In this document: positions 17,735 through 62,321 of the stretch, piece by piece
Layout of the letters: every line of letters begins with the position of its first letter
How positions within the stretch are numbered: the first letter of the stretch is position 1
Assembly (NCBI GenBank): GCA_963825865.1
Contig: CAWGVG010000003.1
Location: 179,418 to 243,417, forward strand
From: an uncultured Nitrososphaeraceae archaeon
Lineage (GTDB): Archaea; Thermoproteota; Nitrososphaeria; Nitrososphaerales; Nitrososphaeraceae
DNA length: 64,000 nt
Reading direction: 5' to 3'
The notes under the pieces: model-generated
Told to the model about the DNA's origin: nothing
The model's input: only the letters and a program-made list of their open reading frames with translations
The model's database searches: none
Made by a program: the position numbers and the translations under genes

Positions 17735-18170
17735 ATACGCTGCTGCAATAGCTTGCCTAGAAACGTCAACCTGCTAGATTATCAGCTTTGTTCTTTTGCC
17801 TGTCATAAAGGAGCACCTAATCGTTATCACACACTAATAGTTACATCGAGTCAGAAATTATTATTGCATGTTCCTCTTTCTTTTGCTTATGATATAGATC
17901 TAACTCGGCAAGTAACTGATCCTTTATCTGTTTGTAAAGCTTGATCCGTATCGAATGGCTTTATATGATCTAGTCGACAAAGGAGACAAATATGAATTGC
18001 AAGTAGAAGTAGCTTCTTTATTATACTTTGACTTCAATCTATCGCAAAAGGTTGAAAGAATTGCTGCAACATATGTCATAATGACATGCTTATAGATATA
18101 TCTCTCCTGTTTCCATTTTTTACTGGTAGTTAACTAATAGTTCTACACATGTATAATTAATATCAATAGT

Positions 18171-20494: not shown

Positions 20495-20797
20495 AGTCGG
20501 TTCTAATGAAGCGTGGTTATGGATTGCAGTAGAGCCAATCCATAGACAAATCCTTGGAGTTCACATTTCAAGGCATAGGAATATGATAGTAGCGGAATCA
20601 TTTATTAGATCATTAATCAAAAGTTATAGGAAACATACTGCTGTCTACACCGATGGTGGATTATGGTATCCTGAAGCATGTATTTTTTGTTAGGCCTAAA
20701 ACATAGATTACATTCATCATATGAAAAGAGTGTTGTAGAAAGAGTAATAGTATATTTTAAGGATAGAAGTGAGATATTTGATGATTATTATCCTTGC
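20495..20797 (+). mobile_element. IS6-family DDE transposase fragment
   Basis: AWLWIAVEPIHRQILG..VYTDGGLWYPEAC..HRLHSSYEKSVVER..KDRSEIFDDYYPC. Confidence 0.8.
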
Positions 20798-20846
20798 ATA
20801 AGATCAGGATTACTATTATGTAATCTGCTACATGTATACAAATCGT

Positions 20847-21203
20847 TGCTTTAATATTATCAATGTTGTTGGTAGCAATTGCATCCTTCAGTTCTTGACT
20901 AGATTTGTTGATTTTTTCCTCGTGTTCTGGTTTCATCTTGTCTTTCAAATCTTGCTTTACCAGTTTTTTGGCTGCATAAATCAAATTATCAGGCTTCGTT
21001 TTTGACTTCTGTTTCCTCCTCCTTCTTTTTATCAGCATCTGCAAATTGGTCTGATTCTTTTTTCAGCCTTTCGATCTCTGATTTTGATAGTTTGGTGTTT
21101 GCGTATAGTGTTTGCATCTTCGCCTCTTTTGATGTAGCCCGGTCTTTTGCAGTAACGTTTAAGATTCCGTTTGCATCTATGTCAAATGTAACTTCGATCT
21201 GTG
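20847..21203 (-). pseudogene. dnaK: DnaK (Hsp70) C-terminal fragment
   Basis: [39 protein letters not shown]. Confidence 0.85.
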
Positions 21204-21232
21204 CAAAAAATAAGGAGGAAGATTTGGTTCTA

Positions 21233-21606
21233 TTAGGCTGGTGTAACGTGGTATCGTGTATCCTTGCCTAAGCCAAACCTTTGAATTTTAAGTACGTTAT
21301 GTCCTTCGCTAAGGTATGAATCGATCTCTTCCGAAGTTCTCTTTCCTACAGTAATGTACTTTTCTTCTTGATTGGTGTTGCGCCATTATTAGGTTCTGTT
21401 ACTGTGTATTGGTATCTCTGAGTCTTTTTGCCATTAAATTCCGCTTCTACCTGTTCTATGTTCTCTGGATTAAATTGTAGAACCTTTTTTTCTCCTGGCT
21501 GTAATTTTATAAACTTGCTGTCCTTCTGTCTGAGTTCTGCATTCCTTTGCAAATTCTGTTTAGCTTTTGGACTCAATCTTTCTGCTGCTGCCAAATTAAA
21601 TCTCAC
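21233..21606 (-). CDS. Putative phage-type ssDNA-binding (OB-fold) protein, frameshift ~21360
   Basis: [19 protein letters not shown]..; the shifted frame ends [19 protein letters not shown]; directly downstream of PolB. Confidence 0.45.
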
Positions 21607-23185
21607 CTCCTGTCTGCAAATTTGCTTTACCCGACCACGCCACTTGGAGGCTTTGCTGTGTGGTCATATTTATACAAATTAAATCTTGTTCTATTGTTGC
21701 GATATCATGACCTGCAATTTCTAGAATGTCTTTGACTGCTTTCCATAACATTATTTTGTATTTTTTGACACTGATGTCTTGCAGATTAAGAGAATATCCT
21801 TCTTTATTGTTGTCAGATTCAAAATACTCTATGACATCTCCTTTCCTTGCACCAATCGCTAACCCTATCTTGCGCTTACGATCGTTTTCATTTTCGTATT
21901 CTTCAGGATTTTTGGATAATCTATTAGATCTCTTTAGTAATTCTGGACTTACATTATGAAGTTCTAAATCAGAGATTGCTTTTTTCAGATTAGCAATAGC
22001 GTCCGCATTATTAACAATGTCATATACTGTCTGTCTGAATACAACATTAATCCATCTAGGTCGATCATTCTTGTCTCCTTCCATACCAACTATGTCTGGT
22101 TCTTTTCCTTGTATGCCAGTCCAACCAACGTAATGCTTTTTCTTATCAGAAATTATTGCTGTTGTGTAGGTCTTGGCATGTTCTACTTCTATACCTAACT
22201 GGTTATAGCATTCTTCTTGAAATCTTGAAATAATATTACTGCTACATGTGGTTCCAGTCGTATCATAGACTGTGTTGTAAAGGAATAAAGAATCAGTGTC
22301 ACCATAGACAATTTCAAATCCCATACCTTTGGCAATTTCTTGCATTTTTGAAAGTGTGTATCTACCGTATGTGGTAATTAGCTCTGCAACCCTCGGATCA
22401 TAATACTTGAAATATTGACTTCCAAAGACACCATATCCACCATTGATCAGAATCTTTAATGCTAGCTGTTTTACTTGATTTCCTAGTTTCTTTTGCTTAA
22501 GTCTCTCTTCTTTGAACACCTTTAATTTGTTTGGAAATGCACCTTCTTTTTGTCTGCATGTCCAGTATTCCTTTTGAATTTTGCAATCCTTTATAATATC
22601 TTCATTTATTCTACATTGAGAATCATCTTTACAACATTCACAATTTACTGTATCAAATGATATATTGTAAAGTATTGCCATTGAAGGGTACAAACTGGCA
22701 ACGTCTACAACAATCAGATCATGGTAAAGTCCCTTTGGTTGAAGAACAAATCCCCCAGCATATTGTTGTAGTTCAGATTTTTCCACATTTCTGTCATATA
22801 ATGAAACTGCTGGTGTTTGACATTCTCCATTAGATATCATACTATCAAAAATAGCTGCCCATCATGTTGATATGCCAGTTCTACATACTCTTTCAAAATC
22901 TAAACCAGTTAGTTCTGATGTGGCTTTCATAGCATTAAGGACTTCACCATTATTATGTTTTGAAAGCTGCATTACCAGCTCAGCATCTCTTAAAACATAT
23001 TTTTTCTGCTCTTCAATTGGAAGGGTTTGAATGTCTTTTCCTGTTAGTCCTTTGTATTTTCTAGCTACTCCTACTCCTCCAAGACCATCTCCTAATACAG
23101 CCTTAGATACATCATCTAGTTTTAGAGTTCGATAAGCATTCTTGAAAATTGTAGTCTGTACCATTGGTTTGCCAAATACAGTCCC
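21596..23185 (-). pseudogene. polB: Family B DNA polymerase (5'-truncated, in-frame TGA at 22862)
   Basis: ExoIII YVLRDAEL, DVASLYPS, KILINGGYG, YGDTDS, KKKHY; the two ORFs are in frame across ST*WAAIFD. Confidence 0.88.
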
Positions 23186-23365
23186 TTTGCCGTATTCAGT
23201 AAGATAACCTCTAGTATTTACCATGGAGATACCATATTTATCGGCATATTCAGTAAGTACTTCAGGAACACCTTCCTTCTCTATAAACACAATATCTGTT
23301 CCCTTCTCTGCAAGTTCATCTATTGCATCAAAACTAACACTAGTCCAAGTACCATCAAAATACAC
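23186..23365 (-). pseudogene. TOPRIM-like fragment (Topo VI-A/Spo11-type) joined to polB
   Basis: DIVFIEKEG..YGISMVNTRGY; unrelated to the PolB N-terminus. Confidence 0.45.
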
Positions 23366-23435
23366 TCAGCCCTTACCCCTGCAATTATACCTATGTCTTC
23401 ACGTTTTCTCCCAGCAGCTTTACAGATTTTACTAA

Positions 23436-24569
23436 TTAACTGCTTGAAGAAGATTTGATATTATCACTGTTAATCCTTGATTGTTCTATAACGTCTTCCA
23501 TTTGATTTTGAAGTCTATTCTCGTTGCTAATCGTCAAAAATTCTATAGCCTTCAAATAATCTTCCAAAAGCTCGTTCTCGGTTGCTCTGTAATAGGAGCC
23601 AGAAATACCTATGGAGTGGCCCATCAGTTTCTCAATGTTTATTGGCTTCATCCCAGAGATTTCGCAACGAGTCTTGAACCACTTACGGAAACCATGATCA
23701 GCCTGAAACTCATGTCTCCTCTTACCATCCTCAAGCTTTTTTCTAAGCCCTTGAATCCAAAGTGCATCTTCCATCAACCTCTTTACACCTGATGATTTTA
23801 GCTTCTTTGGTGAATCAATAAAACCACGTTTGAATCCTTGTTTGGTATTCCACATATTCCTTAGAACCCAACTATTTCCATCAATTGCCTCTCCAGACTC
23901 TCTGCGATAGTTCATCCATTTTTCTAACTCATGATATGCTTCTGGAGTTATGAAACTAAAGTATTCTTCCTCATCTTCTGCATATACAATTATTTTAGCT
24001 GCTATGATTTTTCCATTCCTCTTGGCAGGGTGTATATCTTTCCATCTAAGGTAATCCCACGCACCAAGTCTAATGCCAGAAGAAGACATGGTGCAAACAA
24101 TTGCTTTTATTCGCCTATCTGGATATTCAATTATTCTTTTTATATCTTCAATCGTTGGGGCTCTATCATAGGCATACTTTCTTCCCTTAGGTAATCCTCT
24201 TGTAATCTTCTTCCATGGTATGGATATATCATTCATTTCGCAGAACAACTTTATGGCCTTGACAAAATTATGAACAGTAGCTCCTGTGATCTCTTTTCTC
24301 TCTACTCTCTCTTTTTGTGCTTGCAGAAACCTCAGGATGCTATTCAGAAACCATTTACTGTTACTATTGCCATTTATTCTATCCATCTCTAATGCATTTC
24401 TGCACCTTTGTTGTATGTTCTCGCCTTCAAGGTTGATAAAGTCAAAGAATTTCGTTAGCCTATAGGTGTATTTTTGTTTGGTCACTTGTGAATTTATCGC
24501 AAACATGAATATACCGTAAGGATCTGAATCTACGTTCAGGCATCCTCCTATTACATTTTGTTCTTGCAT
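23436..24569 (-). CDS. Tyrosine recombinase/integrase
   Basis: SSGIRLGA, HGFRK, LMGH, SYY catalytic residues. Confidence 0.92.
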   Translation of the reverse strand: MQEQNVIGGCLNVDSDPYGIFMFAINSQVTKQKYTYRLTKFFDFINLEGENIQQRCRNALEMDRINGNSNSKWFLNSILRFLQAQKERVERKEITGATVHNFVKAIKLFCEMNDISIPWKKITRGLPKGRKYAYDRAPTIEDIKRIIEYPDRRIKAIVCTMSSSGIRLGAWDYLRWKDIHPAKRNGKIIAAKIIVYAEDEEEYFSFITPEAYHELEKWMNYRRESGEAIDGNSWVLRNMWNTKQGFKRGFIDSPKKLKSSGVKRLMEDALWIQGLRKKLEDGKRRHEFQADHGFRKWFKTRCEISGMKPINIEKLMGHSIGISGSYYRATENELLEDYLKAIEFLTISNENRLQNQMEDVIEQSRINSDNIKSSSSS

Positions 24570-32028: not shown

Positions 32029-33106
32029 GTGCAACGCAGCGAAATAACAGGTAAGGAAGCTGAACTATATATTAAACTTCCAAATGGCAGGATGAAATGT
32101 ACCTGCCTGCGCTAGGCTATGTGAAATTCCAGAAGGCAAAACAGGATTGTGCGGTATTAGAGGAGTCACAAATAACAAATTATATTTATACGTATATGGT
32201 AGAGTTATTGCAGGTCATATAGACCCGATAGAGAAAAAGCCTGTGACACATTACAGACCAGGTACAGCGATTTATTCTATAGCCACAACAGGATGCAATT
32301 GGCTATGTAAATATTGTCAGAATTATGATATTTCTCAAAGGCGTAAAGTAGAAGGTGTTGAAATGACTCCTGCAAGAAGTCATTCAGAATGCTGAACGTT
32401 ATGGTACGCATGGTATTGCCTATACGTATAATGAACCTTCTATCTTCATTGAATTTGCAGAAGATTGTGGAATTGAGGCCCATAAAAAAGGTATTTTTAA
32501 CATTTTTGTTTCAAATGGCTACGACACTCCTGAATCTGTCAATATGATGAGCAAATTCTTGGATTGCATAACAGTAGACTTCAAGGGAAGTGGCAAGCAG
32601 GAGTTTGTAAGACAGTACATAGGAATTCCAAGTGCTGAACCAATTTTCCAGACTTTAAAAGCAATTAAGGACAAGACAAAGATTCACACCGAAATTACAG
32701 ATCTTATTGTTCCCCAGGTTGGTGATGACTTAGGAAGCTGCCAAGAAGATTGTGTAGATTTATTTATAATGAACTTGGACCTGATACTCCAATTCACTTT
32801 TTGAGGTTCCATCCAGATTACAAAATGATGGAGTTTGGTATGACGCCAGTTGAAACATTGGAGAAGCATCATGCTATTGCAAAAGAGGAAGGTTTGAAGT
32901 ATGCATATCTAGGAAATGTTCCAGGTCATCCATTAGAACACACTTACTGTCCTGAATGCAAAAGCATTGCTATAGAACGTCATGGATATAACATAGGTTC
33001 ATGGAATCTTGATAATAATAACTGTTGTAAAAAATGTGGTTATCCTCTTCCTATAATAGGAAAGCTAAATAGAAGCAGAAAGAATTTGTTTCAAATCATT
33101 CAGTAA
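32029..33106 (+). CDS. amrS: AmmeMemoRadiSam system radical SAM enzyme (frameshifted)
   Basis: [60 protein letters not shown]. Confidence 0.88.
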
Positions 33107-33404
33107 TAATTCTAGATTATTATAATCTGTCGAGACATTACTTCAAAAACATAACTCTTTCAAAAAGATACTAGATTAGGTGTTACTGAGTTTTTCTTAG
33201 ATTTATGGCTTGGCTAATGTCTTTCCTCAATAACGAATATTGTAATGATCGAGTGTGTATTATAACAAGGCCTAATCACAATATTGCTATCAAACCCATA
33301 ATTTAATGAGAATAACCAAAAAATATGTGTCTGTGTCTATGCGGTCAAACTACTTTCAACATATGGTGGCAAATAGGCATATGACGGGGAGTGATCCTCC
33401 AAAT

Positions 33405-35212: not shown

Positions 35213-38200
35213 TCATAATTCTCTTGCTTCTATAAAGGTAAAGTCTCCTCTCTCTTCATCTGAGTATATCTCAAAACCTTGCTCTTTTACTATTTGATGA
35301 AGATTATACAATCTTCCTTTGATTAAAGACTTTGTTGTTTCTGCAATCATCAAGATGCCATTAGTTACAAGACATCTCTTTGCTTCTGCGATATACTCCT
35401 GCCAATTCTTACCCATTAGCGATAGTGAAAAGATTGCAACATCTAATGCTTCATCAGCTAACGGTACTTTTTTCATATCACATGCTACGACTTTATCATT
35501 TATAGCAACATGGTCAAAGCTATGACACTCTTTGTGATCCGATTGCCTCCATGATTTTTGCTTCTCCCAGCCAAAGTCTCCAATATGCAGTCTCGGGGAT
35601 AGCCGTTTTATTCTTTTGATAATTTCTTCATATGGAATAACACTCCAAGTCTTGCGTGCTTCTCTATACTGTCTGTGATATTCTTCCCACTCTTTTGGGT
35701 CTTCCAGCATTCTTTCATGGGTGGTTTCAGAATTTTCATTATTAATTTGGTTGTTTAATCCTGTAAAGTCACCGTATTTTCTTATTCTTTGTTCTATCTC
35801 AACAGGTGTTAATTTTACCTCAAGATCTCTTCTATTAATACTTGATATTTCTCCTCTCTCTAATCTTTCCAACCATTTTGCTGCTTCCATCATAGCTTGC
35901 TGTGGAGTTACCATGTTCTTATTGGGTAGTCGACCATCTACTGCACAGTCTGCCAATGTACGTTTGTATTGAATTCTTTTCCATTTGTTATCATCATATT
36001 TTAATCCATTGATATTTGCTTTGATGATGTAAACATTTACATAGTCCATCTCACTGCCTTTTCTAACCAATCTACCAACAAGTCTGCTGATATTGTGCAT
36101 TAGTCCATGGAAGAGTATTTATGATTAAATTATTGCAGATGTGCTGCAGCCCATCTACACCAGTGGATATAGGGCGGGAAGCAATCAATACTTGGACTTT
36201 TTTATCCAAAAATCTTTTTAATCCTGAGTGATCTTCACCCGTATATTTTGCATAAGTGTACCCAGCATCTTCTACTGCTTTTGATAATTTTTCAACTATG
36301 TCTGTAACATATTCTGTGTAAATTATAGTCGTACCTTGTATATGTTTTATTATTTCAGGTATTTTCGCATCTGATGCTAACCGTTCAACTGTGAGTGGAT
36401 TTCTTATTAATTCCTTTGCGCTAATATTACTTTTTCTTATATCTATTTCGACGTCTATATGTTCTGTGTATACGCTAATAGGATATGGCGGTATTTCTCT
36501 GATTGATATCAAAGATAATTTTTCATATAATTTGACAGCATTTTGTGGAGTTGGTCTGGTTGATATATCATCATATATTTTACCTGTTATCAACTGTAGC
36601 AAAGATTTACCCTCTTCTAATTCATTTATTACTGGTGTCGCTGATAGTCCAAGGACATTTACATAGCTGTTTTTCTTACTAACATCAGTCATCAATCCTT
36701 CAATGTTATGTCGTCTTTTACTTTCTTCCTTTTCATTTCTTTTCTTTGTGAAATGTATTTCATCCAGTACAACAAAGTCGATTTTTTGTTTCACCAGATT
36801 TAAGATAAGATTTGGGGAATATGGCTGACTGAATAGATCATAGTTTAAGACCAGATATTTGTGTTTATTTTTATCATATTTCTCATAGAACGCTTCATTT
36901 CTTGTTATAACGACGGAATCATGAAATATCTCCAGGATATTATTTTCCCATTGGTCTACTACATCATTTGGACATATTATGAGAGTCATTTTACTGTCAA
37001 TCACACGACTTGCCAGCACAGCTGAAAGTGTTTTTCCTGCTCCAGTTCCAGAGAAATTACCGAAACGCCTATTTGTTTTGATTTTATATGCTACATATCG
37101 CTGCATCAGTGTTGGTGATAGAATCTCCTTATCTTTATCTCTGAATGTATAGCCTTTTGGAATTTCAATACTCTGTGCTCCTTCATAATCTGAAAGAAAT
37201 GTTTCCAATATTATGTCATGATATTTGTTACCATCTTTGCCTTCACGCCTTACATCTGAAATAGTATTTTCTTTATCTCTAAATGCACTTGCCCATAAAT
37301 CCTTTATTGATTTATTAACATAAAACTGCATGGACTCTATATCTTCAGTATATGATTCTAACCTATCAGATTGGGCAAAGATTTGCTGTGGTGTCTTGAT
37401 TTTACCATAATCTAGTGGATCTGTTTCCTTTCCTACCAAATCAGCAATCTCTTGAGAAGATGCAGTTCCTATTTCTTCCTCTTCTGATAAATCTGGTGGA
37501 ATTTCTAAATCAGAATTTACATATTCCTCTATAGTCTTACGCCCTTCAGCTGTACGTCTTGCCTCAATCAAGTTTTTGAAGAATTGTGTGTGACGGCTCT
37601 GTAGATTCAACAGTCCCTTTGTACTTAATAAGTGGTATAGAACAATTTCATCTTCCTCATAAAGCATTCCACTTTCAATCCAATCCTTTAACAATTCCTT
37701 TACTCTTCTTATTGACCAATCTGTTTCTTCATATCCAAGAAAATCATACCAACCTTTCCATACTTCTTCATATATTATATTAGCATTTGTTGGTATATAA
37801 TCAGGCTTTTCTCCAGATCTGCACCACTTTCTCCATTCCTGCCAACTTTTCAATCCAAGTGAATGAACAAATTTTTTAGCTTCTAGAAATGACCAGTATT
37901 TTCTATCCTGTGTAGCTATAGTGCCTGTACCAAGCCAATCTCCCCAACCTTTCCATTCTTTTTTATATACTCGATTAGGACTGTATGGTATATAATCAGG
38001 CTTTTCTCCAGATCTGGACCACTTATTGTATTCTTTCGTATTCTTAAAGCCAAGTGAATGAACAAATTTTTTAGCTTCTAGAAATGACCAGTATTTTCTA
38101 TCCTGTGTAGCTATAGTGCCTGTACCAAACCAATCTCCCCAACTTATCCATTCTTTCTTGTAAGTTCTTTCTGGATGAGGTGGTATACCTTCAGGAAGAT

Positions 38201-38678
38201 CTTTTTCCTTAACATATTTGCGCCATTCTTTATTATTTTTTATTCCCGATGAACGAGCAAATTCTCTTGCTTCCTCAAAAGGCAGTGGTTTAAAATCTTG
38301 CTTCCATACTGTCCCAGTACCAAGAAAATTCCCCCAGCTTATCCATCCTTTATTTTTATATACTTTATGAGGAATACGTGGTATACCTTCAGGAAGACCT
38401 TTCTCCTTAGCATATTTTTCCCACTCCCTAGAATTTTTTATTCCCGATGAACGAGCAAATTCTCTTGCTTGAGAAAAAGATAACCATTCTTTACCAATCC
38501 AATTACGCCAGCTTATCCATCCTTTATTTCTATATACAGAATCAGGACGAGATGGTATACCTTCAGGAAGACCTTTCTCCTTAGCATATTTTTCCCATTC
38601 ATCCTTACCTTCTAATTTGAGTGAATTAGCAAACGCTCTTGCTTCTTCAAATTTCCTCCAAATTGTGTGAAATATCAT
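35213..38678 (-). CDS. Fusion: five Trp-rich repeats + SF2 helicase + Rrp8-like methyltransferase (frameshift ~36080)
   Basis: Repeats FxEAxxF..EW..IP..P..Y..WxxWxDWLG; GTGAGKT, ICP, DEIH, SATP, STGVDGLQ, GRLVRKG; C-terminal EWEEYH..GDFG..SFDH..ACDM..FSLSLMG. Confidence 0.82.
37737..38660 (-). repeat. Five intragenic tandem repeats (~58-66 aa)
   Basis: Identical DNA blocks 37856-37933 / 38051-38128 (195-bp period); shared blocks at ~38380/38554 and ~38237/38436. Confidence 0.9.
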
Positions 38679-39670: not shown

Positions 39671-39764
39671 AAGAACAATTCACCTTCAACCCGACCGCAA
39701 AGATTCCCTTCCTTTTTTCTTTGCATCGCGATTATCGTCATCATTAAAATTATACTGACTAGCC

Positions 39765-39920
39765 TAATGAAGTTAGATTTATCTACAAATGCTACTGGGG
39801 TAGATGATGCCATAAAGTTTGTATCATAGAAATCATCATCTATAAAACCCGAATTAGAAAAACATAAAGTTGATGATGCTGTTACTGTAGATAAGAATCA
39901 CACCAATGACATTCAAAGAT
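39765..39920 (+). pseudogene. C-terminus of a gene preceding a terminase start (MTFKD)
   Basis: MKLDLSTNATGVDDAIKFVS, then atgacattcaaagat at 39906 matching the start at 47072. Confidence 0.45.
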
Positions 39921-40114
39921 GAGTCATCACCTGACCTGCTGGAGCAGATATCATCTTTAGGACTCCCAGATCAAAGCATACAGTACTAGTAGTATTATCA
40001 GGCTCAGTGCTCTGTAGAGTAACACCCCTTCCAGCGTTATCTGTCGGTGCATTATGGTCTATCAGAGCAAAACCAGGTGGATAACTTGAGTGAACGGAGC
40101 TCTCATATACGCAC

Positions 40115-40164
40115 CTATGCTTAGATTCCGTTGAAGAACCTATGAACAATGTTGGCTTGCTCAT
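40115..40164 (-). pseudogene. TIR-like (Cap12/Pycsar-type) domain N-terminal fragment
   Basis: MSKPTLFIGSSTES, then unrelated sequence. Confidence 0.45.
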
Positions 40165-40693
40165 CCGTTTTTGCTTTCTCGTGCCTTTTTTTGATAGATG
40201 CATATATTTTAGAATATCGATCTTCTCAATAATTTTCAAGACTGGTCAGAATGACAGCCAGGTAGGATGATAATTCCTGTTACCAATAAGTAACAATTTT
40301 TTTCTAACGTGACTTAGAGTAAAGTTCTGGAGTTTGTTAAATCCCTGTCTAAACAAGAAATGATAGATTTTGATGGGGCGGCACCGTGCTCATGAGGCTC
40401 GTCTTGAGCTGCTCGATCTGTTCGAGCGCGCAAGCGTGTTTATCAAGCACACTTTGACAAGAAATTGCCGTAACAAGCTTCTGCATCTGATTGACTGCTT
40501 CTGATTGTTAGTCCGCTATTAGCACGCAGTTCAGCAAATTCAGAATCGCTGATCATGAGAGACCTAATCATCTGTGCCGTCCATATGACGTTAGTGGTTT
40601 GTCTTGGCTTGGACGTCCGATTATAAGCGGAGTATAAGTCCTCTTTTCATAGTGCCGTCGAGAGTTAGTTAAGGATATTGCTTGCTAGAAAAA

Positions 40694-40756
40694 GAAAACA
40701 TAAAGTGGATGATGCTGTTACTGTAGATAAGAAACATAGTAATGACATTTAAGGAT
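40694..40756 (+). repeat. Imperfect direct repeat of 39857..39920, containing a terminase start
   Basis: aaacataaagt(t/g)gatgatgctgttactgtagataagaa..aatgacatt; ATG 40742 reads MTFKDLRKMIISSSQQ. Confidence 0.8.
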
Positions 40757-41354
40757 CTGAGGAAGATGATAATAAGCAGCAGCCAACAAACACTTACAAT
40801 CGCTAATAATGATCTACCATCAGTATAGTGGAGATATGAAAAGCTCAAAAGAGAAGAAGCATCTTTACAAGCTGGTAATCATAATTCAGCCAGAACCTTT
40901 CAGGAATTAAGTGATCTGATATCAACTACACGCAACACATTGGAGCAATATGAGTCAGATTGTGAAGAAAAGAGACTCGAGATAACCAAGCTGCGGATAC
41001 AAATGATTCGAGCAGAGGCCCGCATACGAGATAACACTCCGCGTTAAAGGTAGAAAATCAGGCAGAGACATCCCTAGGCCAGTCTGGTTTGTGCATGAAG
41101 GCAACACGTAATTAAGCTAACAGTTTTTTATTTCGTGTCTATCCGATGTACTGAATCAATTATTCTTTAGAGAGATAGATGATGGATATTTATCGTTGTA
41201 AAAAACCCTTCCTTTTTCTAAAGAAGAATGCAATAATAGAAGTTCTGATAAAAGACGCTATCCCTTTTTTGCAATAGACACCGTTCATTCATCTGCTCTT
41301 GGAGTATTAGGAGATACATCGGATTTACTTGCTACTCCTACAGTATCTTGTTGA

Positions 41355-41576
41355 TCACTGCTGCCTACTCTTTCGATTTATAGTGGAAGACGATGAATCT
41401 TTCTCTTGCTCTGTCTTTTTGTCTTGTCCTTGAGTTTTTGCAATACAGTCATTGCATGTCCATACACCTTTGATATAACTACCTGCCTTTATCTTCCCAT
41501 GTTGTTCTATTTCATCTTCTAGCGAATCGGTAACAGGCGAGCCACATTTGATACATTGCGGTAGTAAGTTTACCAT
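41355..41576 (-). CDS. Small Zn-finger protein
   Basis: CIKC..WTCNDC. Confidence 0.55.
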   Translation of the reverse strand: MVNLLPQCIKCGSPVTDSLEDEIEQHGKIKAGSYIKGVWTCNDCIAKTQGQDKKTEQEKDSSSSTINRKSRQQ

Positions 41577-42338
41577 TATATCAAAGATATCTATCTATTT
41601 CTAATTTATTAGTTAATATATGATATCCAATGATACTCAAAAATCTGTTTCTGGACATCTACCAAACTTATCTTTTTAGATGTTATCATATATACCCGAT
41701 CGTTTCAATCTTGAATGTATTACCATTATATCATGAAAGCATGCTCTATATAGATATGTGCAGGTGGTTGGATGGTATGATAGTTGGTTAGAAGAAGCAA
41801 AGTATTTTCGTTGGTTAAATGAATGGTTAGGATACAAGGAATTTGAATAACGGGAAAAGTGGGTAGTAGTAGTTATGTTAGTAACCGATTTGTATTAAAC
41901 TGATTTATTAGATATCTTCAATAACAAAATAAATGCTAATGAGGACTAACTCCTTTGCTTGTTGTCTTACAACAGATAGATCTCTTTACTGCGCAAAATA
42001 TCTACAATTTTAGCATTTTGGCAAGTAGATGTATTCTCTTACGTTTATTCCTTAGCCAAAGATAACTCTTATATCTTTTAATTTCGTTAGTTTGGACAAT
42101 ATTTTCAATTTTTACGTATTAGAAAAATATTATTATATAATATTATATAAATTAGTTCAGAATTTACAATTTGGTTTAACAATTTGCAATAGTACTTTTT
42201 TTTATTAGGGGAACTTAAGATAAAGTAGAGCTGTGGAAAATATAAGTACAGAGCAGCAGCATCTGAGAACAACATCATCATCACAAGACTAACTTAAGAG
42301 AAAAATCTGAAGAGAAAAAAGAACAACAACAACTCTGG

Positions 42339-42584
42339 TTGAAAACCATTTCTATTCACAGTTATTCACAGCTATCAGAATTGCAAGACCATTTTTGCGA
42401 TAATAAAGAACCTGCTATTCTAATCGCAAGAATCACACCAATAGTGACAAAAAATATTGAAGAAGGAATGAAGTTAGTAAATGAAGTTTATTCGATGGCT
42501 ACAAAAAAAAATTATTCTGTTTTTCGCTTAGGAGAAGAAAGAATTATTCTAGTTCCATCTACCGTAAGAATAAAGTCCTTGTAA
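42339..42584 (+). CDS. sepF: SepF-like protein
   Basis: ILIARITP..LVNEVY..RLGEERIILVPSTVRI, archaeal SepF-type pattern. Confidence 0.65.
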   Translation: MKTISIHSYSQLSELQDHFCDNKEPAILIARITPIVTKNIEEGMKLVNEVYSMATKKNYSVFRLGEERIILVPSTVRIKSL

Positions 42585-42699
42585 TAATAATAATAATAGG
42601 ACGACGAAGACAATAAAATTGTATGGCTGCATTTGCATATCTGTAAATCTCTTGCTTTTAGTTTTTCTAAAAACTATTAGAAATCATGAATCAGTCAGC

Positions 42700-43132
42700 T
42701 TAGCTTTATACATTTTTAATCTATATTCCTAAGAGTAGCTTTAGGGTATCTTGAGTGCCATCTCCGACCCCTTTTCTTTAGCAAATTTCACAAAAGCTTT
42801 TTCGAACCTTTTGGCGATGCTCTTCACTTGTTCATCAAGTCCTGCTCTGTAGTTTTAATCCACTCAATAAGATCAAGTAAAGCTGTCATGAAAGGATAAA
42901 TTGGCTATAGTGATTCACCGATCAAGACTTCATCCTTGCCATAAAAACCTACCAAGAAGTCCTTATCTTTATTGATCAGTTTTTGATAGATCTTGTTCAA
43001 TAATGCAGACTTGCCAATTCCAGATTCTCCTATAACATATGTAATGCTACTTTGGCTACTATTCATCCTATTCCAAAGCTCGTCAAGCTCTTTTTCTCTT
43101 CCGAATAATTCTCGTTCTGATTTAATAGCCAA
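42700..43132 (-). pseudogene. STAND/AAA ATPase N-terminal fragment
   Basis: LFGREKELDEL..VIGESGIGKSALL. Confidence 0.7.
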
Positions 43133-43337
43133 TAATCGATACCAAGATAGGTATGATTAAAAGTTTTTTATTTGAATGTCCATTTCGTATCTGGAAAACG
43201 ATCATCGTCAACACAACAGCTACCAACAATCCAATGATTATCACCAACAATATTAAACCACTGGAAGTGGCGTGCATGAATAATCTTCACCTAACTAAAG
43301 ACCAATGCGATCAGACAATTGTGGATGGTGGCTCGAT

Positions 43338-43788
43338 TTATTGATTGACCTCTCTAGATTCAATTTTCTCTAATCTCTCTTCTAATGACTTTACTGCTAG
43401 AACAATTGGCCCTTCAGATAAAAGCTTAAACTTGGACTCATTGGATTCTATAATTACCTTTAGTGCCAAGAGTTTCTCCTTTATTGGGAGTTTATTGTCA
43501 TTATATATTTTCCATGATTCTCTATTAGCTTGATCAATATCTTCTATGCATTGTTTGTAATAGTAAGCAAGATCTGATTTTGCTAGATCGTAGACAAATT
43601 GTTGGCTTTTAGCTTTTAGAGCTTTGATGTCTCTACAGATAGTACTCTACATGAACATCAAGGCGAATGGCAATTTCAGTTTCAGTCATTGACTGAGCTA
43701 ATAGTCTTGCAACTGTTCTTCTGCGATCTTCAATCAGGAATTTAGAATTGCTGTATTTGTTTTGCAAGGTCACGCTGATTTTTTGCAT
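43338..43788 (-). pseudogene. HTH protein, possible terminase small subunit (frameshift ~43650)
   Basis: Manual: IEDRRRTVARLLAQSMTETEIAIRLDV..STICRDIKAL..KLLALKVIIE..KFKLLSEGP. Confidence 0.5.
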
Positions 43789-44554
43789 TTCTCCTCGCTT
43801 GTTTTAATAAGGTCTTGCAATCCCACGCTTAGAATATATCTCGAAACCAAGCTTTATGTATTTTCAATGCTCATTGCATTTCAAATTGTTCATAGTCCTT
43901 ATTGGTTCAATTTCTTTTTCTTTCTTATCGCATCAACTATTGCTTGAACTTCTTTACCAATTAATTTGCTAAACGATGCTAAGTTTCTTTTGCTTCAACA
44001 TTTGTCTGTTTTACGTAATCGACTTCTTCTTTTACTAGGTAATTGGGGATTGAATCTATGTAAATTCTAGTTCTTTGATGTGAAGAATATATTTGATTAT
44101 ATGGATCATCTTAATACAATATCTCTTTGTGTCTCTGAAGGTCAAAATGCTCGTATGTGATCATATGAGCGAGTCACACTCTATAAACAATTATACTGCA
44201 GATGTGCACTAAAAAAATATCAAATTTTTTATTAATCATGGTAAAATATTGGATTGTTATTATCCAGGGAATCTAAATACCGAAGCAACAACTCTAAAGA
44301 AGTATTTTAAGTCTATATCAGTAAAGATAAATAGTAAAAGAAAAATTGTCTCCATTTAAATCAATTGTAAATAAGGAGAAATAACTTATAACCACAGTAA
44401 TGGAGTAGATAATCAATCAAAGATGCAGGAATCAAATATAGAATTGAATGGATCTGTTAACTAATTTCAGTATTTTTTGTTTAAATTATTAGGAAAGTCC
44501 ATGACTAGATCTACATTTATACGACAAATTGTGTTTTTGAAAGTAATAATGTTT

Positions 44555-44899
44555 CTAGAATTTACCTTGAAAGTGTAAACCTATGATTTGTTGGATAAAC
44601 GGTGACGCAAGAGGAAAATATTCTTTAAATTTCTTCTTCAAATTATCAAATATATCCGGAAGAGGTTTGGAGTTTAATTCCTTGTTTAATTCTTCCAGTA
44701 TATTTTTGATTTTTTCCTTTTTTTCTGTACTGTAAGGACTTGAGTTAACTTGATCAATGATATATCTATGGGAAATAGTTTGATCTGATATTACATTGGT
44801 ATTGATGGATGTAGCAGTTGTATCTCTAGTACCGAAGTTAACTGTATCTGCATAAATGGTAGGATTATTTAAAATATAAGTATGTCCTTCCTTGCGCAA
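44555..44899 (-). CDS. Hypothetical protein
   Basis: Open frame only. Confidence 0.4.
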   Translation of the reverse strand: MRKEGHTYILNNPTIYADTVNFGTRDTTATSINTNVISDQTISHRYIIDQVNSSPYSTEKKEKIKNILEELNKELNSKPLPDIFDNLKKKFKEYFPLASPFIQQIIGLHFQGKF

Positions 44900-44949
44900 A
44901 CTACCTAAGTTAAGGGAGCCGTTTGGATAGTAAAAAAAGGTAGAAAGAG

Positions 44950-45609
44950 CTAACCCTGTATTATGGTTACACTAACGCATTGATCTAATAGTTGCGCCAC
45001 AAGATTATCAACATTAGCTGCCTGCGATTGTGTCACAAAACACGTGCCTTGTAGATTGCTGTTAATAAAGATTGTTCTCTCGTTGTTATCTCTATCATGG
45101 ACTACTACTGTTTTATGGATCACTTTTACATTATCGTTATGATTATTGTCGTGGAACCTAAAAAAACCATCATTGTTATGATTATTGAACCTAAAACCAT
45201 CATTGTGTTTGAAGTTGTTGAAGTTATCATTGTTGTTGTGTTTGAAATTCTTGTCGAAGTTATTATTATCACGTTCGAAGTTCTTGAAATTATTGTTGTT
45301 GTTCTTGAAATTCCTATCTATATTATTATTACCGCCTTTCGAAACAGTATGAGTTATTTGTTTATCATTGCCACCATTATCGAAATGTTTGATGTTGTTG
45401 TCATTGCTGGGAATACCACTACTACTACCACCACCGAAGTGCTTAATGTTGTTGTCATTATTGTTAGTACTGTGGATATTACTACCGCTACCACCACCAA
45501 AATCACCCTTAACAGCCAAGGCCGTCATTGTAGTCATGAAAGAAGGTGATAATGCAAGCATAGCAATTACTGCTAATATTGCTGTAAACTTTACTATGGT
45601 TATCATCAA
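44950..45609 (-). CDS. Secreted Asn/His/Gly-rich repeat protein
   Basis: Signal peptide; NDNNIKHF x2, NFKxN and DGFxF repeats; C-terminal Cys pair. Confidence 0.7.
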   Translation of the reverse strand: MMITIVKFTAILAVIAMLALSPSFMTTMTALAVKGDFGGGSGSNIHSTNNNDNNIKHFGGGSSSGIPSNDNNIKHFDNGGNDKQITHTVSKGGNNNIDRNFKNNNNNFKNFERDNNNFDKNFKHNNNDNFNNFKHNDGFRFNNHNNDGFFRFHDNNHNDNVKVIHKTVVVHDRDNNERTIFINSNLQGTCFVTQSQAANVDNLVAQLLDQCVSVTIIQG

Positions 45610-45778
45610 ACTACTTTAGGTTAGTAACTATAATATCATTGGGTAACATGGTGCCGTGTCATAGTTACGTATCAAAAAACATTTTTATGTATTGATATGG
45701 TGTACTAATTAATCTAACCAAAAGGATTTCTTACTTTGCCATTCTTTTTTCCTTTTTTTGTTTTACTTTTAAAATGTA

Positions 45779-47072
45779 TTAAATATAAAAAAGCCATAGA
45801 TATTCTGTCGTTGCAACACTGGCATCAAGTATGTCGTTATGCGACGTTGACTCCTTGTCTAGCGAACCTTCGCTTTCTACTGCAGTTCTTAGCGATATTA
45901 TGAGTTTATCAAATATGGGATTGATTGCAACCATCTCTGATTCCATCAACATCTTGGCATGGCCCAACATCTCTCTATGTTCTGTAGAGAAATTGACAGG
46001 TATTACTTGCATATGCTCCTTCCAATGCCATTTTATTTTCTTGTAATATTCTATTACTTTCTCGTAGTCTGACCTTTCACCTAACATTTGTTTTAGTGAA
46101 CGAATAAAGGAGGGATTAGAACCATCAATATACATTTTAGCGATATTGTAGTTTTCAATCAGTTCAATACATCTCCCAAGCATTTCATTGTAGTCTGGCC
46201 TTGGGAATTCGTCAGCGTATAATACCTGTATTGCACCATCAGAAAACTGCGTTATTACAATTGCAAAGTTAGAAGAACCATAAGCAGGGTCTATCCCCAT
46301 CGATTTGGCAGCGTATGAATTAACGGTACTATCAGGATCATAGTTCTTGCCTTTTTCAATTGCTTCTTCGATATCTTTGGTATGGAATACATTACCAATC
46401 CTACCCAGATACTTGAGGTTGTATTCTCTTTCAAAACTTGGAGAAGCCTTTGCTTTTTCTATCTCTTGTCTACTGTAGATTCTGTCAAGGCCATAAGCAT
46501 CTATGTGGTTTGAAGGGTAGGCTTCAATCGTACAGCCATTTAACTCCAACACAGTTTCCTTATTTGCAAAAGTTAATCCCAGCTTTGGTTCGAACAATCC
46601 TTTAATCCTCTTGATTAGCTTGATAGCAATGTCTATGTTAGGACCTGTTACTATGCACATCTGAGAATTTCTGTAACTATTATCTTTCAAACATAGCCAG
46701 GCCATGAGCCTGAGGAAAAACTCGGTAACTCCTAATCCAGTTGCCTTCTTTACCCATAGATGCTTGTGCTTGAAGTTGTGGTTGTTTAGTATATTGTTGG
46801 GATAGCAGCCGTTAGGCAATAATAAAAGAGAATCGTACAGCAGTTTCTCATAATCAAACATTGGTTTTTCTATTCCATCTTTCTTTGGCAATGAAATTAT
46901 GTGATTAAAACAACACTCTCCTTTTGTCCTAAAGTCTTCCAGCTTATGCTCTTGTACGTCCCAAATCCAAAATGGCTTATCTTTGCAAATATCAAAAAGT
47001 CTGGTTTGTTGTTGTTGTGATATCTCTAGCGTACTGCTGCCTGATTCTCTTCCTCAGATCCTTGAATGTCAT
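45779..47072 (-). pseudogene. Terminase large subunit-like protein (frameshift ~47040, probable internal deletion)
   Basis: MTFKDLRK start; LWVKKATGLGVTE (Walker A-like), FEREYNLKY, MGIDPAYGSS, YIDGSNP, HNDILDA (RNase H-type nuclease). Confidence 0.7.
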
Positions 47073-47269
47073 CGCTCGCTGTTATCTTCTTGGTTTTCTA
47101 TTACAAGATCATTAGCTTTAGCTTTTTCTTCTTCTTGATGTTGTTTTTCTTGTTCTTCTTCTTCTGATGATATTTGTTGTTGTTGTTGCCGTTGTTGACG
47201 TCCTTTTTCTTCTTCTTCTTTTTGTAATAATAATAAGGCGATTATTTTATATATAAGCTGACAAATCAT
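47069..47269 (-). CDS. Gln/Glu-rich ORF overlapping the terminase start
   Basis: Stop overlaps the ATG (ATGA) at 47069-47072. Confidence 0.4.
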   Translation of the reverse strand: MICQLIYKIIALLLLQKEEEEKGRQQRQQQQQISSEEEEQEKQHQEEEKAKANDLVIENQEDNSER

Positions 47270-53315: not shown

Positions 53316-54345
53316 TGTTGTACTTACAAACATAGGTAACAATATAGCTTACAGACATAGGTAACACTTCTGCTAGGAAGTGGAAATCTCTATAGAAATT
53401 AGAACAAAATTCAATCTCATTCATGAACATGAATGGACTGGTAATAGTATTAGCGATATTTGCAATAAATACGAAATATCTAGGAAGACATATTACAAGT
53501 GGAAAAATAGATACATAGAGCACGGAATAGACGGGTTGAAAGACCTATCTAGAAGGCCTCATAGCATCAAAACCAAAGTATCTAAAGAAATAGAAGAAAC
53601 AATACTTGATTTAAGATTAAAGACCTTTGGTACTAGTAGAATCAGGTTCAGATTAAAAAGACTTGGAGTATCATTGAGCAGTAGAACCATATACAAGACA
53701 TTGAAAAAACATACTCTCAACGTTCTAAACTGTAAGGTAAAGAATAATAGAAAGTATAAGCGATTTGCAATGAAACATCCAAATGACATGCTTCAAATGG
53801 ATATACTTGGACCATTTTACGTACACTGTTCTAGCACAAGAAATTACATGATAAGCTGTATAGATGACTGTTCAAGAAAAGTTGCTAGCAAGTGGTCTGA
53901 AAGAAAGAGGAGCATTGATGTTTTGAATGTACTAGAGGAGTGGATTATGGATAACGGAAAGCCCAGGAAAGTTATGCATGACAACGGTAAGCAGTTTACA
54001 TCTAAACTATTCAAACACTTTCTATATAAGAATAACATAAAGGATAAACCAATTCCAAATTCATATCCACAGTTACAAGGAAAGATAGAAGCATATAACA
54101 AGATTGTAAAGAATGAGTTCTTGACAGTTGAAGAAATAACAAGTATTGATGATGGAAAACTAAGGTATGATATGTTTGTCAAAGCATATAATGAAACTAG
54201 GGAACATGGTGGAATAAATGGTCTTACTCCTTCTGAAAGGTTTGTACAAAGGTTAATTAAATCTAAGACATATACAAAAAGGAAGCAAGAAAGTGTAACC
54301 TATGTAGGTAATCAAAATTGTTACCCATCTGTGTAAGTACCAACA
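53316..54345 (+). mobile_element. Complete IS481-family insertion sequence
   Basis: TGT...ACA ends, ~60-bp imperfect TIRs with internal repeats, intact transposase; no target duplication seen. Confidence 0.9.
53380..54336 (+). CDS. IS481-family transposase
   Basis: HTH ISRKTYYKW, DLSRRP, LQMD, IDDCSR, HDNGKQF, QGKIE. Confidence 0.92.
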   Translation: MEISIEIRTKFNLIHEHEWTGNSISDICNKYEISRKTYYKWKNRYIEHGIDGLKDLSRRPHSIKTKVSKEIEETILDLRLKTFGTSRIRFRLKRLGVSLSSRTIYKTLKKHTLNVLNCKVKNNRKYKRFAMKHPNDMLQMDILGPFYVHCSSTRNYMISCIDDCSRKVASKWSERKRSIDVLNVLEEWIMDNGKPRKVMHDNGKQFTSKLFKHFLYKNNIKDKPIPNSYPQLQGKIEAYNKIVKNEFLTVEEITSIDDGKLRYDMFVKAYNETREHGGINGLTPSERFVQRLIKSKTYTKRKQESVTYVGNQNCYPSV

Positions 54346-56334: not shown

Positions 56335-56619
56335 GTATTGACCATCGAAGATACAAAGTCCTTGCAAACGAAGGTAGAAGATCTTGCAAACAAATCCAAA
56401 GATAACGAATATTTAGTTAATGCTAAGTTATCAGAAAAAGATAAACAGATTGAGGCTTTGATGCAGAAGCAAAATCAATTTGAACAACTAATTCAATCCC
56501 TTATAGATTCAGGGCAATTGAAACCTACACTCCGCAATACAAATCATATTATTTGGAGAAACATTTTCCAATCTTATTTCACGCATAATCGACGAGTTAG
56601 ACAAGGCAGTCATAAATAA
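56335..56619 (+). pseudogene. C-terminal coiled-coil tail of an integrase paralog
   Basis: LTIEDTKSLQTKVEDLANKSKDN parallels LTISNENRLQNQMEDVIEQSRIN of the 23436 integrase. Confidence 0.55.
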
Positions 56620-56640
56620 AATTGGGGGTAGTGGATTCTA

Positions 56641-56865
56641 ATGATAAGTAATACTATTGTTGCTGACTTTGTAAGCAGGGATTGTAAAAGTAACCTACAT
56701 CAAAACTGCCACGGTAAATGGAAAGGCTTGGGATTTGAAGTCATTTGCAGATGTCTATGCTCACATGATAAAAAAGAAATGGCGTTAGGGTTGGTTGGGG
56801 AACCTGTTGCTAACACCATACATGAAATTCAGCCATCTTCTAAGGAGACTATCCAAAGACTATGA
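56641..56865 (+). CDS. Small Cys/His-rich protein
   Basis: C..H..C..CxCxC.H; ATGA-coupled to the next gene. Confidence 0.6.
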   Translation: MISNTIVADFVSRDCKSNLHQNCHGKWKGLGFEVICRCLCSHDKKEMALGLVGEPVANTIHEIQPSSKETIQRL

Positions 56866-57170
56866 CTAAAGATACATATCCTGAAGGTAAAGATAAGCCT
56901 TTTGATTTTAACTACAATTCGCAAGTAATATCACTAGAAGTTTTACTTAGGTATCATAATCTCGGGTTTAAATTAGTACCAATCGGCATAGATTCTAGAA
57001 CACCTACCATTAAATCCACCAACCAAATATATGAAAACCCTGATTATTGGTCACCAGATAAGATTGCACAAGAGCATAATAAGTTCAAAAATGTAGCAAC
57101 TACATTTGGTAAAAGTCATATTAAAGATGAAAATGGAGAAGACCTTTATCTATACTGCCGGGCTGTCTGA
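56862..57170 (+). pseudogene. Bifunctional primase-polymerase (Prim-Pol) N-terminal fragment
   Basis: YHNLGFKLVPI..SRTP..W..NVATTFG; truncated before the DxD motif. Confidence 0.55.
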
Positions 57171-57579: not shown

Positions 57580-58308
57580 CTTTAAAGGAGATGATAGCTT
57601 TACCTTCAAGCAGTAACTACAGCCATGCAACTATACTTTAGTGGAGAATCAATACGTAATACCCAAAAGTCTATCAGATTGATAGGCGTTCAAGTATCAT
57701 ATCAAACGATTTTCAGATGGATTAGAAAATACGTTAATTTGATGCAAAGCTATGTTGAAAAGTTAAAACCAAATGTTGGCGATGTTTGGAGAGCAGACGA
57801 ACTATGGATCAAAGTTAAGGGAGATATGAAATATTTGTATGCGCTAATGGATGACGAAACAAGGTTCTGGATAGCTCAAGAGGTAGCAGATACAAAATAC
57901 ATGCATGATGCTCAAAACCTATTTCATAAAGGAAAAGAGGCAATGGACAAGAAACCATCTACCCTGATAACTGATGGTTTACGCTCATATCATAATGCCT
58001 TCAATAAAGAGTTTTACACAAATACAAAACCAAAAACAGAGCATATCAACACTATCAGGATGCAAGGAGATATGAATAACAACAAGATGGAACGTTTCAA
58101 TGGTTAGGCTAGAGATAGGGAGAAAGTAATGAGAAATTTGAAAAGAAAAGATACATCCATACTAACTGGCTATCAAATCTATCATAACTACATAAGAGAG
58201 CATCAAGGGTTAGAAAATAAAACACCTGCTGAGGTATCAGGGATTAAAATTCAAGATGAAAATAAATGGATAACTTTAATACAGAATGCTAAGAAAGAAA
58301 ATGTATGA
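57580..58308 (+). mobile_element. IS6-like DDE transposase, 5'-truncated, in-frame TAG at 58105
   Basis: VSYQTIFRW, WRADE, ALMDDETRF, ITDGLRSY, NNNKMERFNG*ARDREK..YHNYIREH..KTPAE..WITLIQNA. Confidence 0.82.
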
Positions 58309-61652: not shown

Positions 61653-62321
61653 ACTTCTTATAGTATCTATGAGCTACTATTGTAATTTAATAAAACTCTT
61701 TTATGATTATAGAAAGACATTATGATTGACAACGGGTCTTTTTGGTCACGATTTCCCCCGATGTGTCCTCATTTGAACTAGACATTAGCTTTGATGTCAA
61801 TATAGGGGCAAAAGACGGTCTCTTCCAAAGCATCTTCTAGGTGCCGTATATGATACCAACCTTGTACTTTCGCAGAGATTTATCCACGGCAATTCATGGG
61901 ATCTCGATATTCGCTAAACACTATCATCTTGGCTTTGGATAGTTTTCATATGAAAAGTACACATATGACAAACCAAATTACTATATATTTCTGAGAAGCA
62001 TTTGCAACTAATGAAATAATGCACTAACCTAATACATGCCTTAAAAGAACTACTTGGCGTAAGTCTAATACATGTGGAAAGATCAAACTTCTATATCATA
62101 GGTATGGTTGTAGTGATAGCCCTTGTCGGCACTCTGTAATTCCTCTACACGAGCACTGGTAGACTGGTCTAGCAGACTAATTTTTGGAATTGCTCTGATT
62201 TAATGGAGAATGGACAAAATAGGAGACAGCTAAGGCCATAGCCAGGGTTGTTTACTTCTTCTTTTCTTGGTGATCCAATTATATGATTAAATTAAAAAGG
62301 TTTGGTGATAATTATAACACT

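Follow-up and report, generated by a model that had tools for sequence, protein, structure and literature searches.

Decayed terminase genes in a Nitrososphaeraceae contig and a multi-copy family of integrative elements without recognisable capsid genes

A terminase gene counts as a hallmark of a complete head-tailed virus. Why, then, does the start of a gene for the large terminase subunit (TerL) recur three times within about 7 kb of archaeal DNA? The stretch in question (hereafter the window) comprises 64,000 nucleotides from an uncultured Nitrososphaeraceae archaeon (GenBank assembly GCA_963825865.1, contig CAWGVG010000003.1, positions 179,418 to 243,417), and the three starts define what we call copies A and B, on the forward strand, and copy C, on the reverse strand (Table 1). 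The best explanation we can offer is that a single family of Nitrososphaerales integrative mobile elements has left its dead copies in the window between about 21 and 63 kb, copies A and B being scraps left by random deletion. That the copies in the window are decayed remnants of this element family we regard as very likely.

The repeated start itself is confirmed. The 15-mer ATGACATTYAARGAT occurs three times in the window, at 39906(+), 40742(+) and 47058-47072(-), against none expected from 100 shuffles, and bears out the three near-identical MTFKD starts reported by an initial annotation of this DNA. The 25-mer given in that annotation has one exact match at 47048-47072(-) and one match with a single mismatch at 40742-40766(+), again with none expected (100 shuffles). 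The copies at 39906 and 40742 lie on the same strand, 836 bp apart, and the diverged upstream block of some 60 bp that they were said to have in common is also there: blocks 39859-39920 and 40695-40756 (repeat family D8) are 89% identical across 62 nt, made up of 47 nt 5' of the ATG and the initial 15 nt of the open reading frame (ORF). The motif is thus present at all three sites, but they do not amount to three terminase gene starts; what they carry is one TerL pseudogene and two junction scraps of about 100-180 bp.

Copies A and B, compared with related loci (numbered here with the prefix L), are not genes: each covers the junction between TerL and the TerS-like helix-turn-helix (HTH) gene that precedes it. 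Copy A consists of approximately 165 nt of the TerS-like 3' part (from about residue 117 to the end) followed by the initial 15 nt of TerL, of which it retains 5 codons only, and its segment 39767-39919 aligns by tblastn (best E 1.4e-9) with TerS-like proteins of 14 loci, within their C-terminal third. Copy B joins the final 54 nt or so of the TerS-like gene to the initial 46 nt or so (about 16 codons) of TerL. Outside the limits of the two copies, tblastn found no TerL resemblance.

The same junction has a particular organization in intact relatives, where it is dual-coding. The TerS-like ORF ends 56-83 nt past the TerL start in L018, L028, L036, L044, L050, L060 and L072, its frame reads that start as ..NDIQR.. 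or ..DIQG.., and all 5 of the 5 full-length relatives fetched begin MTFKDL or MTFKEL. The junction stays recognisable because it is read in two frames and because the TerL N-terminus (MTFKDL) is strongly conserved, and a scan for repeats would single out just this piece.

Two features of the DNA between the scraps may be added. The stretches 39875-40175 and 40325-40700 have a G+C content of 41-47%, against 31-35% around them, and a truncated ORF starting MSKPTLFIGSSTES sits there; we take this start to recall TIR-like nucleotide-binding proteins, and neither Pfam nor PADLOC gave a match for the ORF.

Copy C has more of the gene and is a non-working TerL pseudogene. Its closest relative is P0001 (532 aa), with 90% identity, and a quick tree, midpoint-rooted for drawing only, groups it with P0001 and P0002. 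Matches to the TerL family PHROG_2 (E 3.6e-10) and to Pfam Terminase_6C (E 0.0024, under the curated cut-off) agree. The homology assigned to a terminase-like gene starting at 47072(-) is therefore present, but the ATG is out of frame with the terminase body: the MTFKD frame runs into a stop after 26 codons, and homology resumes in the +1 frame from about codon 10 (near 47040). Further in, an in-frame deletion of 225 nt (75 residues), corresponding to P0001 residues 189-263, takes out Arg190, the Walker B pair D201/E202 and K224, leaving copy C without the Walker B part of the ATPase site. The C-terminal helix is lost as well, the sequence past ..NDILDA being unrelated to P0001. Just 5' of copy C, the stretch 47004-47144 matches the TerS/TerL junction of L018 (blastn), and the tail frame DIQGSEEEN.. 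of the short ORF located there resembles the tails of L028 and L044; we read this ORF as a remnant of the acidic C-terminal tail of a TerS-like gene whose body is missing.

If the window holds only remnants, what are they remnants of? A scan of genome contigs returned 181 TerL relatives, of which the best 80 were kept, making 79 loci to which all locus counts given here refer. By record title, all 79 come from Nitrososphaerales or related archaea. They are spread over 38 assemblies, 11 of which hold 2-11 loci each (TH526 reaches 11; counts by accession prefix), and at least two separate TerL-derived pieces are found in 12 of the 79. The core of the initial annotation, a multi-copy family of terminase-bearing elements in this lineage, is supported by these numbers. 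Searches of protein collections found 3546 relatives at E<=1e-3 among 7517 candidates, and a profile search found 4634 clusters (50% identity), 836 of them at E<=1e-30. ORFs of intact length number 32, in 31 of the 79 loci, and dN/dS among the 40 pairs listed, same-assembly pairs included, ranges from 0.042 to 0.113. The intact TerL copies are under strong purifying selection.

On its predicted structure the family protein is a TerL, with a clear fold and weak sequence models. P0001 matches the PHROG_2 TerL at 9.1e-19, and a PDB sequence search with the TerL profile gave no terminase and only RFC, at E 0.36. A structural model built from 59 sequences reached a predicted local distance difference test score (pLDDT) of 91.8 and a predicted template modelling score (pTM) of 0.81, superseding an earlier, poor model from 12 sequences (pLDDT 57). 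Every Foldseek match listed for it is a terminase or a phage packaging motor, T4 gp17 (E 9.5e-18) coming first and HK97, Sf6 and D6E after it; TMt is 0.51-0.59 for ATPase-domain targets (T4 gp17 and P74-26 among them) and 0.51-0.69 for nuclease-domain targets (including G20c, SPP1 and E217). In the 59 family sequences K105, R190, E202, K224, E287, D333, D388 and K479 are invariant and D201, D486 and D489 nearly so. These include the residues of an N-terminal ASCE (additional strand, conserved glutamate) ATPase, with Walker A K105 and Walker B D201/E202, and of a C-terminal RNase H-like nuclease, with D333, D388, D486 and D489. Among annotated phage records the sole match is the TerL of Nvie-Pro1, a head-tailed provirus of Nitrososphaera viennensis EN76 (FR725450.1), at 45.6% identity over 88% of P0001.

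All-against-all clustering of the ORFs in the related loci brought out three conserved partners of TerL: the TerS-like HTH protein directly upstream, tyrosine integrases and a large PolB-type protein. The same clustering found no conserved gene cluster downstream of TerL. Of the 47 loci with at least 2.6 kb of upstream sequence, 28 carry the TerS-like gene ahead of TerL on the same strand, and in several loci it overlaps the TerL start; its product is a small protein whose N-terminal HTH gives HTH_23, GerE and Sigma70_r4 matches in 10-15 of the 28 members. An integrase is present in 19 of the 31 loci with at least 8 kb upstream. Where contigs are long, the TerS-like gene and TerL stand side by side, with the integrase elsewhere. 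Other replication modules are MCM in L072, PrimPol in L073 and a D5-like primase-helicase in L003 and L037, and helicases occur in L018 and L040. Taken globally, the intact elements combine a tyrosine integrase, an interchangeable replication module (PolB, D5-like primase-helicase, MCM or PrimPol) and the TerS-like/TerL pair, without recognisable portal, capsid or tail genes.

A variable acidic tail closed by a conserved N-x-[VI]-F is also common to most TerS-like proteins, as seen in an alignment of members from L003, L005-L009, L015, L017, L018, L022, L028, L036, L041, L044, L060, L072 and L073. This peptide could be a candidate docking site for TerL.

The portal, capsid and tail proteins of Nvie-Pro1 match one locus of the 79, L066, so that in the family as a whole TerL is not encoded beside portal and major capsid genes. 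A first scan of 100 large ORFs of the related loci found none of the PHROG head, portal or tail categories; a second one, of 94 ORFs, found the true capsid and tail proteins of L066 and otherwise weak or secondary head- and tail-type matches only. The window agrees, as had been reported for it: no portal, capsid or tail gene, and no HK97-fold capsid, is recognised in it by Pfam on its ORFs or by PHROGs on 17 of them, and the 27 Nvie-Pro1 proteins, compared by tblastn, match it at TerL only. No complete head-tailed provirus was found in it. Three options had been left for the elements by the initial annotation. The satellite-like one fits the finding that 78 of the 79 loci have no structural genes beside TerL; that of a gene transfer agent finds no support because no capsid or other structural gene cluster was found; and the conventional complete provirus describes the separate clade of L066 and Nvie-Pro1 but not the other loci.

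How close is Nvie-Pro1, then, to the elements? It has the same TerL family, the same host lineage and a small gene just upstream of TerL. Unlike in the elements, portal, protease/capsid, tail and baseplate genes come after its TerL, its upstream gene is dissimilar to the TerS-like family (it matches L066 and L076 only), and its record carries no annotated integrase or replication gene. With its related TerL and its portal, capsid and tail genes, the Nvie-Pro1-like lineage is a possible helper.

The reading at which we arrive is that these are capsid-less integrative elements with their own terminase, probably satellites of Nvie-Pro1-like viruses. Mechanistically, an element would excise and replicate by itself; its TerS-like protein would recognise the element DNA, and TerL would cut that DNA and pump it into the procapsids of a head-tailed virus of the Nvie-Pro1 type acting as helper. 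The element would then be a virus satellite that brings its own terminase. Docking of this TerL on the helper portal is plausible because the same hosts harbour a related head-tailed lineage whose TerL is homologous. The data establish the anatomy, copy number, fold, catalytic residues and purifying selection of elements that decay often and whose terminase pair is conserved and apparently active; packaging and reliance on a helper are inferred.

Bacterial satellites offer a parallel. Phage-inducible chromosomal islands (PICIs) and Staphylococcus aureus pathogenicity islands (SaPIs) combine an integrase with a replication module of their own and a packaging-specificity gene, and they rely on a helper to provide the virion. 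The related loci have this anatomy, capsid genes again being absent, and by analogy the elements would work alike, presumably with the same dependence on a helper. The terminase is where the types part: classical PICIs carry TerS or a redirecting protein and are not known to carry TerL, and capsid-forming PICIs carry TerS and TerL along with capsid and portal genes. We know of no satellite type with a full terminase and without capsid genes. If the satellite reading is true, this would be, to our knowledge, the first satellite type defined by a TerL without a capsid gene and the first proposed for Nitrososphaerota.

The satellite mechanism taken by itself remains tentative, somewhat short of an even chance, and the fullest form of the claim, that widespread satellites with a complete terminase and many copies per genome pirate Nvie-Pro1-like procapsids in soil ammonia-oxidising archaea, is doubtful. 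Decayed remnants and satellite mechanism together, as one overall explanation, receive a compromise judgement marginally better than even. For now the family is best filed with cryptic integrated elements and virus satellites, as a recurrent capsid-less architecture around a complete terminase.

Several results weigh against the satellite reading. No helper virus, excised form or encapsidated DNA was seen, and 0 of the 42 whole-contig loci have matching ends. Within the available stretch the TerS-like gene is missing in 19 of 47 loci and the integrase in 12 of 31. The TerS identity is weak, being based on generic HTH matches and on PHROG TerS matches with E around 1e-4 (phrog_2538 at 2.9e-4, phrog_7344 at 3.9e-5); a PDB profile search with the TerS-like protein gave generic HTH proteins only, and the Atlas search gave Nitrososphaerota hypothetical clusters. 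Many neighbouring ORFs have no match of any kind, so novel capsid genes may lie among them. In the L066 control, moreover, PHROGs missed the known portal and found the capsid protein at E 5.6e-6 only; the lack of a conserved downstream cluster is the stronger argument for missing capsid genes because this control was poor. A few weak matches of head or tail type also occur: a head-maturation protease at 2.8e-7 in L006:6961-8199, secondary to an unknown PHROG at 1.7e-44; phrog_430 in L047:18899-20236 and L067:5565-6851, secondary to protease families; and a TerS PHROG at 5.4e-6 in L049:5589-6443. None of copies A, B and C in the window can be linked to an integrase, the element pieces being scattered remnants not assignable to one element, and many of the single frameshifts could be assembly errors, housekeeping-type genes being split too. 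Deletions and truncations are different in kind from such frameshifts.

A first alternative is that the copies are relics of complete head-tailed proviruses of the Nvie-Pro1 type, whose structural genes have decayed and whose terminase region survives. Krupovic et al. put forward this view for NitKor-E1, a cryptic integrated element of Ca. Nitrosopumilus koreensis AR1 (PMC6563490). The 45.6% identity to the Nvie-Pro1 TerL fits it, and so does the window, where all copies are decayed in a region rich in broken genes and insertion sequence (IS) fragments. What makes it unlikely is the state of the relatives: TerL is of intact length and under purifying selection in 31 loci, yet Nvie-like structural genes occur in 1 of 79; no conserved gene cluster follows TerL; and TerL recurs with integrases and with replication modules of various kinds. 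Furthermore, the quick tree sets Nvie-Pro1 and L066 apart as a long-branched clade of their own.

NitKor-E1 resembles the present elements as far as its published description goes (PMC6563490): it is integrated, has TerS directly upstream of TerL and a tyrosine integrase, and is described without other head-tail virus genes. That account presents a single element in a marine genus, read as a relic, and calls the role of its terminase 'enigmatic'; the family here has dozens of loci, many per genome, with an intact TerL under selection and varied replication modules.

A second alternative gives the TerS-like/TerL pair a job other than packaging, as a homing-like selfish cassette, in concatemer resolution of plasmid-like elements or as an anti-packaging decoy. 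It draws on pairs of loci from the same assembly that have the two-gene module alone in common, with abrupt borders: L032 and L034 share a segment of 2.2 kb only, and L003 and L006 one of 3.0 kb only (from the TerS-like gene to TerL), with different integrases and replication genes. Copies of one assembly also tend to cluster in the tree (five of TH526, L003/L006/L008, both in L019, L032/L034 and three of La5-A1), and the module sits on unrelated backbones in defence-rich neighbourhoods. The borders, however, are not constant: L035 and L047 share 6.3 kb, integrase included, and in L064 the borders differ, beginning inside TerL and ending earlier. Neither terminal inverted repeats nor target duplications were seen at the borders examined, PADLOC has no match for TerL or for the TerS-like protein, and the catalytic residues of a working packaging motor are all conserved. 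We consider a non-packaging role quite improbable.

Since the module is shared on different backbones with variable borders, it is reshuffled among them and is not a discrete transposon. A TerS-TerL transposon was rejected on the inconsistent borders among L032, L034 and L064 and on the lack of visible inverted repeats. Circular episomes were rejected as well, none of the 42 whole-contig loci having identical ends of at least 20 nt.

Further signs of rearrangement were noted in individual loci. In L044 a 288-nt stretch adjoining the TerL module (11852-12139) is 84% identical to part of a PCNA gene (21152-21439), which sits beside a second, decayed TerS-TerL copy; this hints that a lineage of the L044 type integrates at PCNA or carries a PCNA piece. 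The TerL of L072 (10001-12487) breaks off at about residue 360, from where its reading frame runs on into a protein with 54% identity to the L028 replication protein; this looks like one element inserted into another. Directly 3' of the intact TerL of L006, the segment 11571-21494 encodes a GmrSD/HEPN protein, a HerA-like ATPase and type I restriction-modification genes, which are either defence cargo or a defence island.

Could the junction scraps instead be attachment sites, left by repeated integrase-driven integration and excision at the TerS/TerL junction? Two orphan junctions 836 bp apart, on the same strand and 89% alike, invite the idea, as does a similar orphan start in L029, 1472 bp before its TerL. 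The break points vary, however: those in the window lie at +15 and +46 nt, that of L029 at about +32, that of L009 at residue 52 and that of L077 at residue 148. Orphan N-terminal TerL pieces (L009, L029, L077) are accompanied by orphan C-terminal ones (L004, L008, L015, L053, L074), and the long-contig loci keep the TerS-like gene and TerL together, with the integrase elsewhere. Pieces from every part of the gene thus argue for random decay and not for a fixed recombination site at the junction, and the attachment-site reading was rejected as very unlikely on the variable break points and C-terminal orphans. Least credible of all is an assembly artefact in which copies from different strains were collapsed or mis-joined: many genes of the window are split by single frameshifts, from error-prone assembly or real decay, but strain collapse is hardly to be believed because copies A, B and C are unlike one another in length, sequence, strand and flanks, and multi-copy, fragmentary TerL is found in many independent assemblies too.

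For Nitrososphaerales, a search confined to open-access papers without their supplements turned up no account of terminase elements that are both multi-copy and capsid-less. Krupovic et al. (2019) found TerL at only five places in 20 thaumarchaeal genomes and treat the NitKor-E1 terminase as probably a relic (PMC6563490). Lee et al. (2024) put most TerLs of viruses of soil ammonia-oxidising archaea in one cluster with those of proviruses of the same archaea (PMC11849493). Two preprints on archaeal satellites describe other kinds (10.1101/2025.02.15.638363; 10.64898/2026.08.12.739948).

The window itself is mundane, dead remnants in a region with many element insertions, and the interest lies in the family. 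Provirus-finding pipelines keep a region as viral on one hallmark gene, as in one methods section (PMC13573593). Most Nitrososphaerales TerL genes may belong to capsid-less integrative elements or to what is left of them. In that case the number of proviruses counted in these globally important nitrifiers would be too high, virus-host dynamics and gene flow among soil ammonia oxidisers may be influenced by a hyperparasite of a new kind, and the 'enigmatic' terminase of NitKor-E1 would be a member of a testable class, not a single oddity.

Table 1. Terminase copies and other element remnants in the window, with the comparison behind each assignment.
Feature	Coordinates	Strand	Basis
Copy A, orphan junction scrap	39740..39923	+	tblastn, blastn to L060 and L018
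Copy B, orphan junction scrap	40689..40790	+	blastn to L060 9947-10046, 73.5%
Copy C, TerL (large terminase) pseudogene	45779..47072	-	90% identity to P0001; PHROG_2; Pfam Terminase_6C
E/Q/K-rich short ORF just 5' of copy C	47069..47269	-	blastn and tail-frame likeness
TerS-like HTH gene, one frameshift, no TerL after it	43338..43788	-	tblastn to L019:4005-4475, 52-59% identity, E 1e-35
Decayed TerL fragment, Walker A region (~residues 77-147), in-frame stops	33076..33303	+	tblastn E down to 4e-9, 13 loci
Possible TerL fragment (..FNHIIGSPRKE.., ~residues 52-76)	62217..62291	-	weak tblastn, E 0.01-0.4
Element remnant: integrase, PolB and small conserved ORF	21236..24569	-	Pfam Phage_integrase, DNA_pol_B; tblastn to loci
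Tyrosine integrase of the 21.2-24.6 kb remnant	23436-24569	-	Pfam Phage_integrase
Family B DNA polymerase, two pieces	21596-23365	-	Pfam DNA_pol_B
Small conserved ORF	21236-21606	-	tblastn to loci
Element remnant: integrase C-terminal piece and PolB N-terminal piece	56416..57152	+	tblastn to L006 integrase, L044 PolB protein
Integrase C-terminal piece	56416-56544	+	tblastn to L006 integrase
N-terminal piece of large PolB protein	56949-57152	+	tblastn to L044 PolB protein

The remaining remnants are collected in the same table. The TerS-like HTH gene named in the initial annotation is real, on the minus strand, but frameshifted. About 155 nt downstream of this pseudogene, at roughly 43170-43190(-) (about 43183), lies ATGGACATTCAAA, which is like a TerL start into which a single base has been added; whether a fourth start remnant or chance, we judged it too weak for counting. 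The decayed TerL fragment at 33 kb translates as ..FLRFMAWL..CIITRPN..IAIK, and the integrase-PolB remnant at 21.2-24.6 kb ends beside an IS fragment (Pfam DDE_Tnp_IS240 at 20358-20693).

The neighbourhood has defence-type genes and IS elements, and no tRNA genes were found in the window. IS elements are located at 20358-20836(+), 53380-54336(+) and 57625-58107(+): two are IS240/IS6-type DDE fragments, each adjoining a truncated integrase-PolB remnant, and one is an apparently whole IS481-like transposase. Several ordinary genes, at 4199-5327, 6206-7923, 24945-26442 and 26857-28249, are each broken into overlapping ORFs by single frameshifts; they encode a zinc alcohol dehydrogenase, a P-type ATPase, a KAP-family NTPase and a type I restriction R subunit. 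This reflects either widespread pseudogenisation or indel errors in the assembly.

At 35213-38678(-) an 868-aa SNF2/DEAD-type helicase carries an N-terminal array of repeats of about 58-65 aa (..KYAKEKGLPEGIP..), visible in the DNA as direct repeats of 195 nt and 109 nt; a Methyltransf_8 gene comes after it, and PADLOC matches it weakly to PbeA and DrmD. Paralogues with universal-stress-protein and CBS domains form an array at 5400-18500, which includes long diverged inverted repeats pairing 3822-3993 with 9101-9272 and 5799-5903 with 18170-18274. Finally, the ORF at 44950-45609(-) encodes a 219-aa protein without a family match, with a signal-like N-terminus and a long Asn/Asp-rich repeat region.

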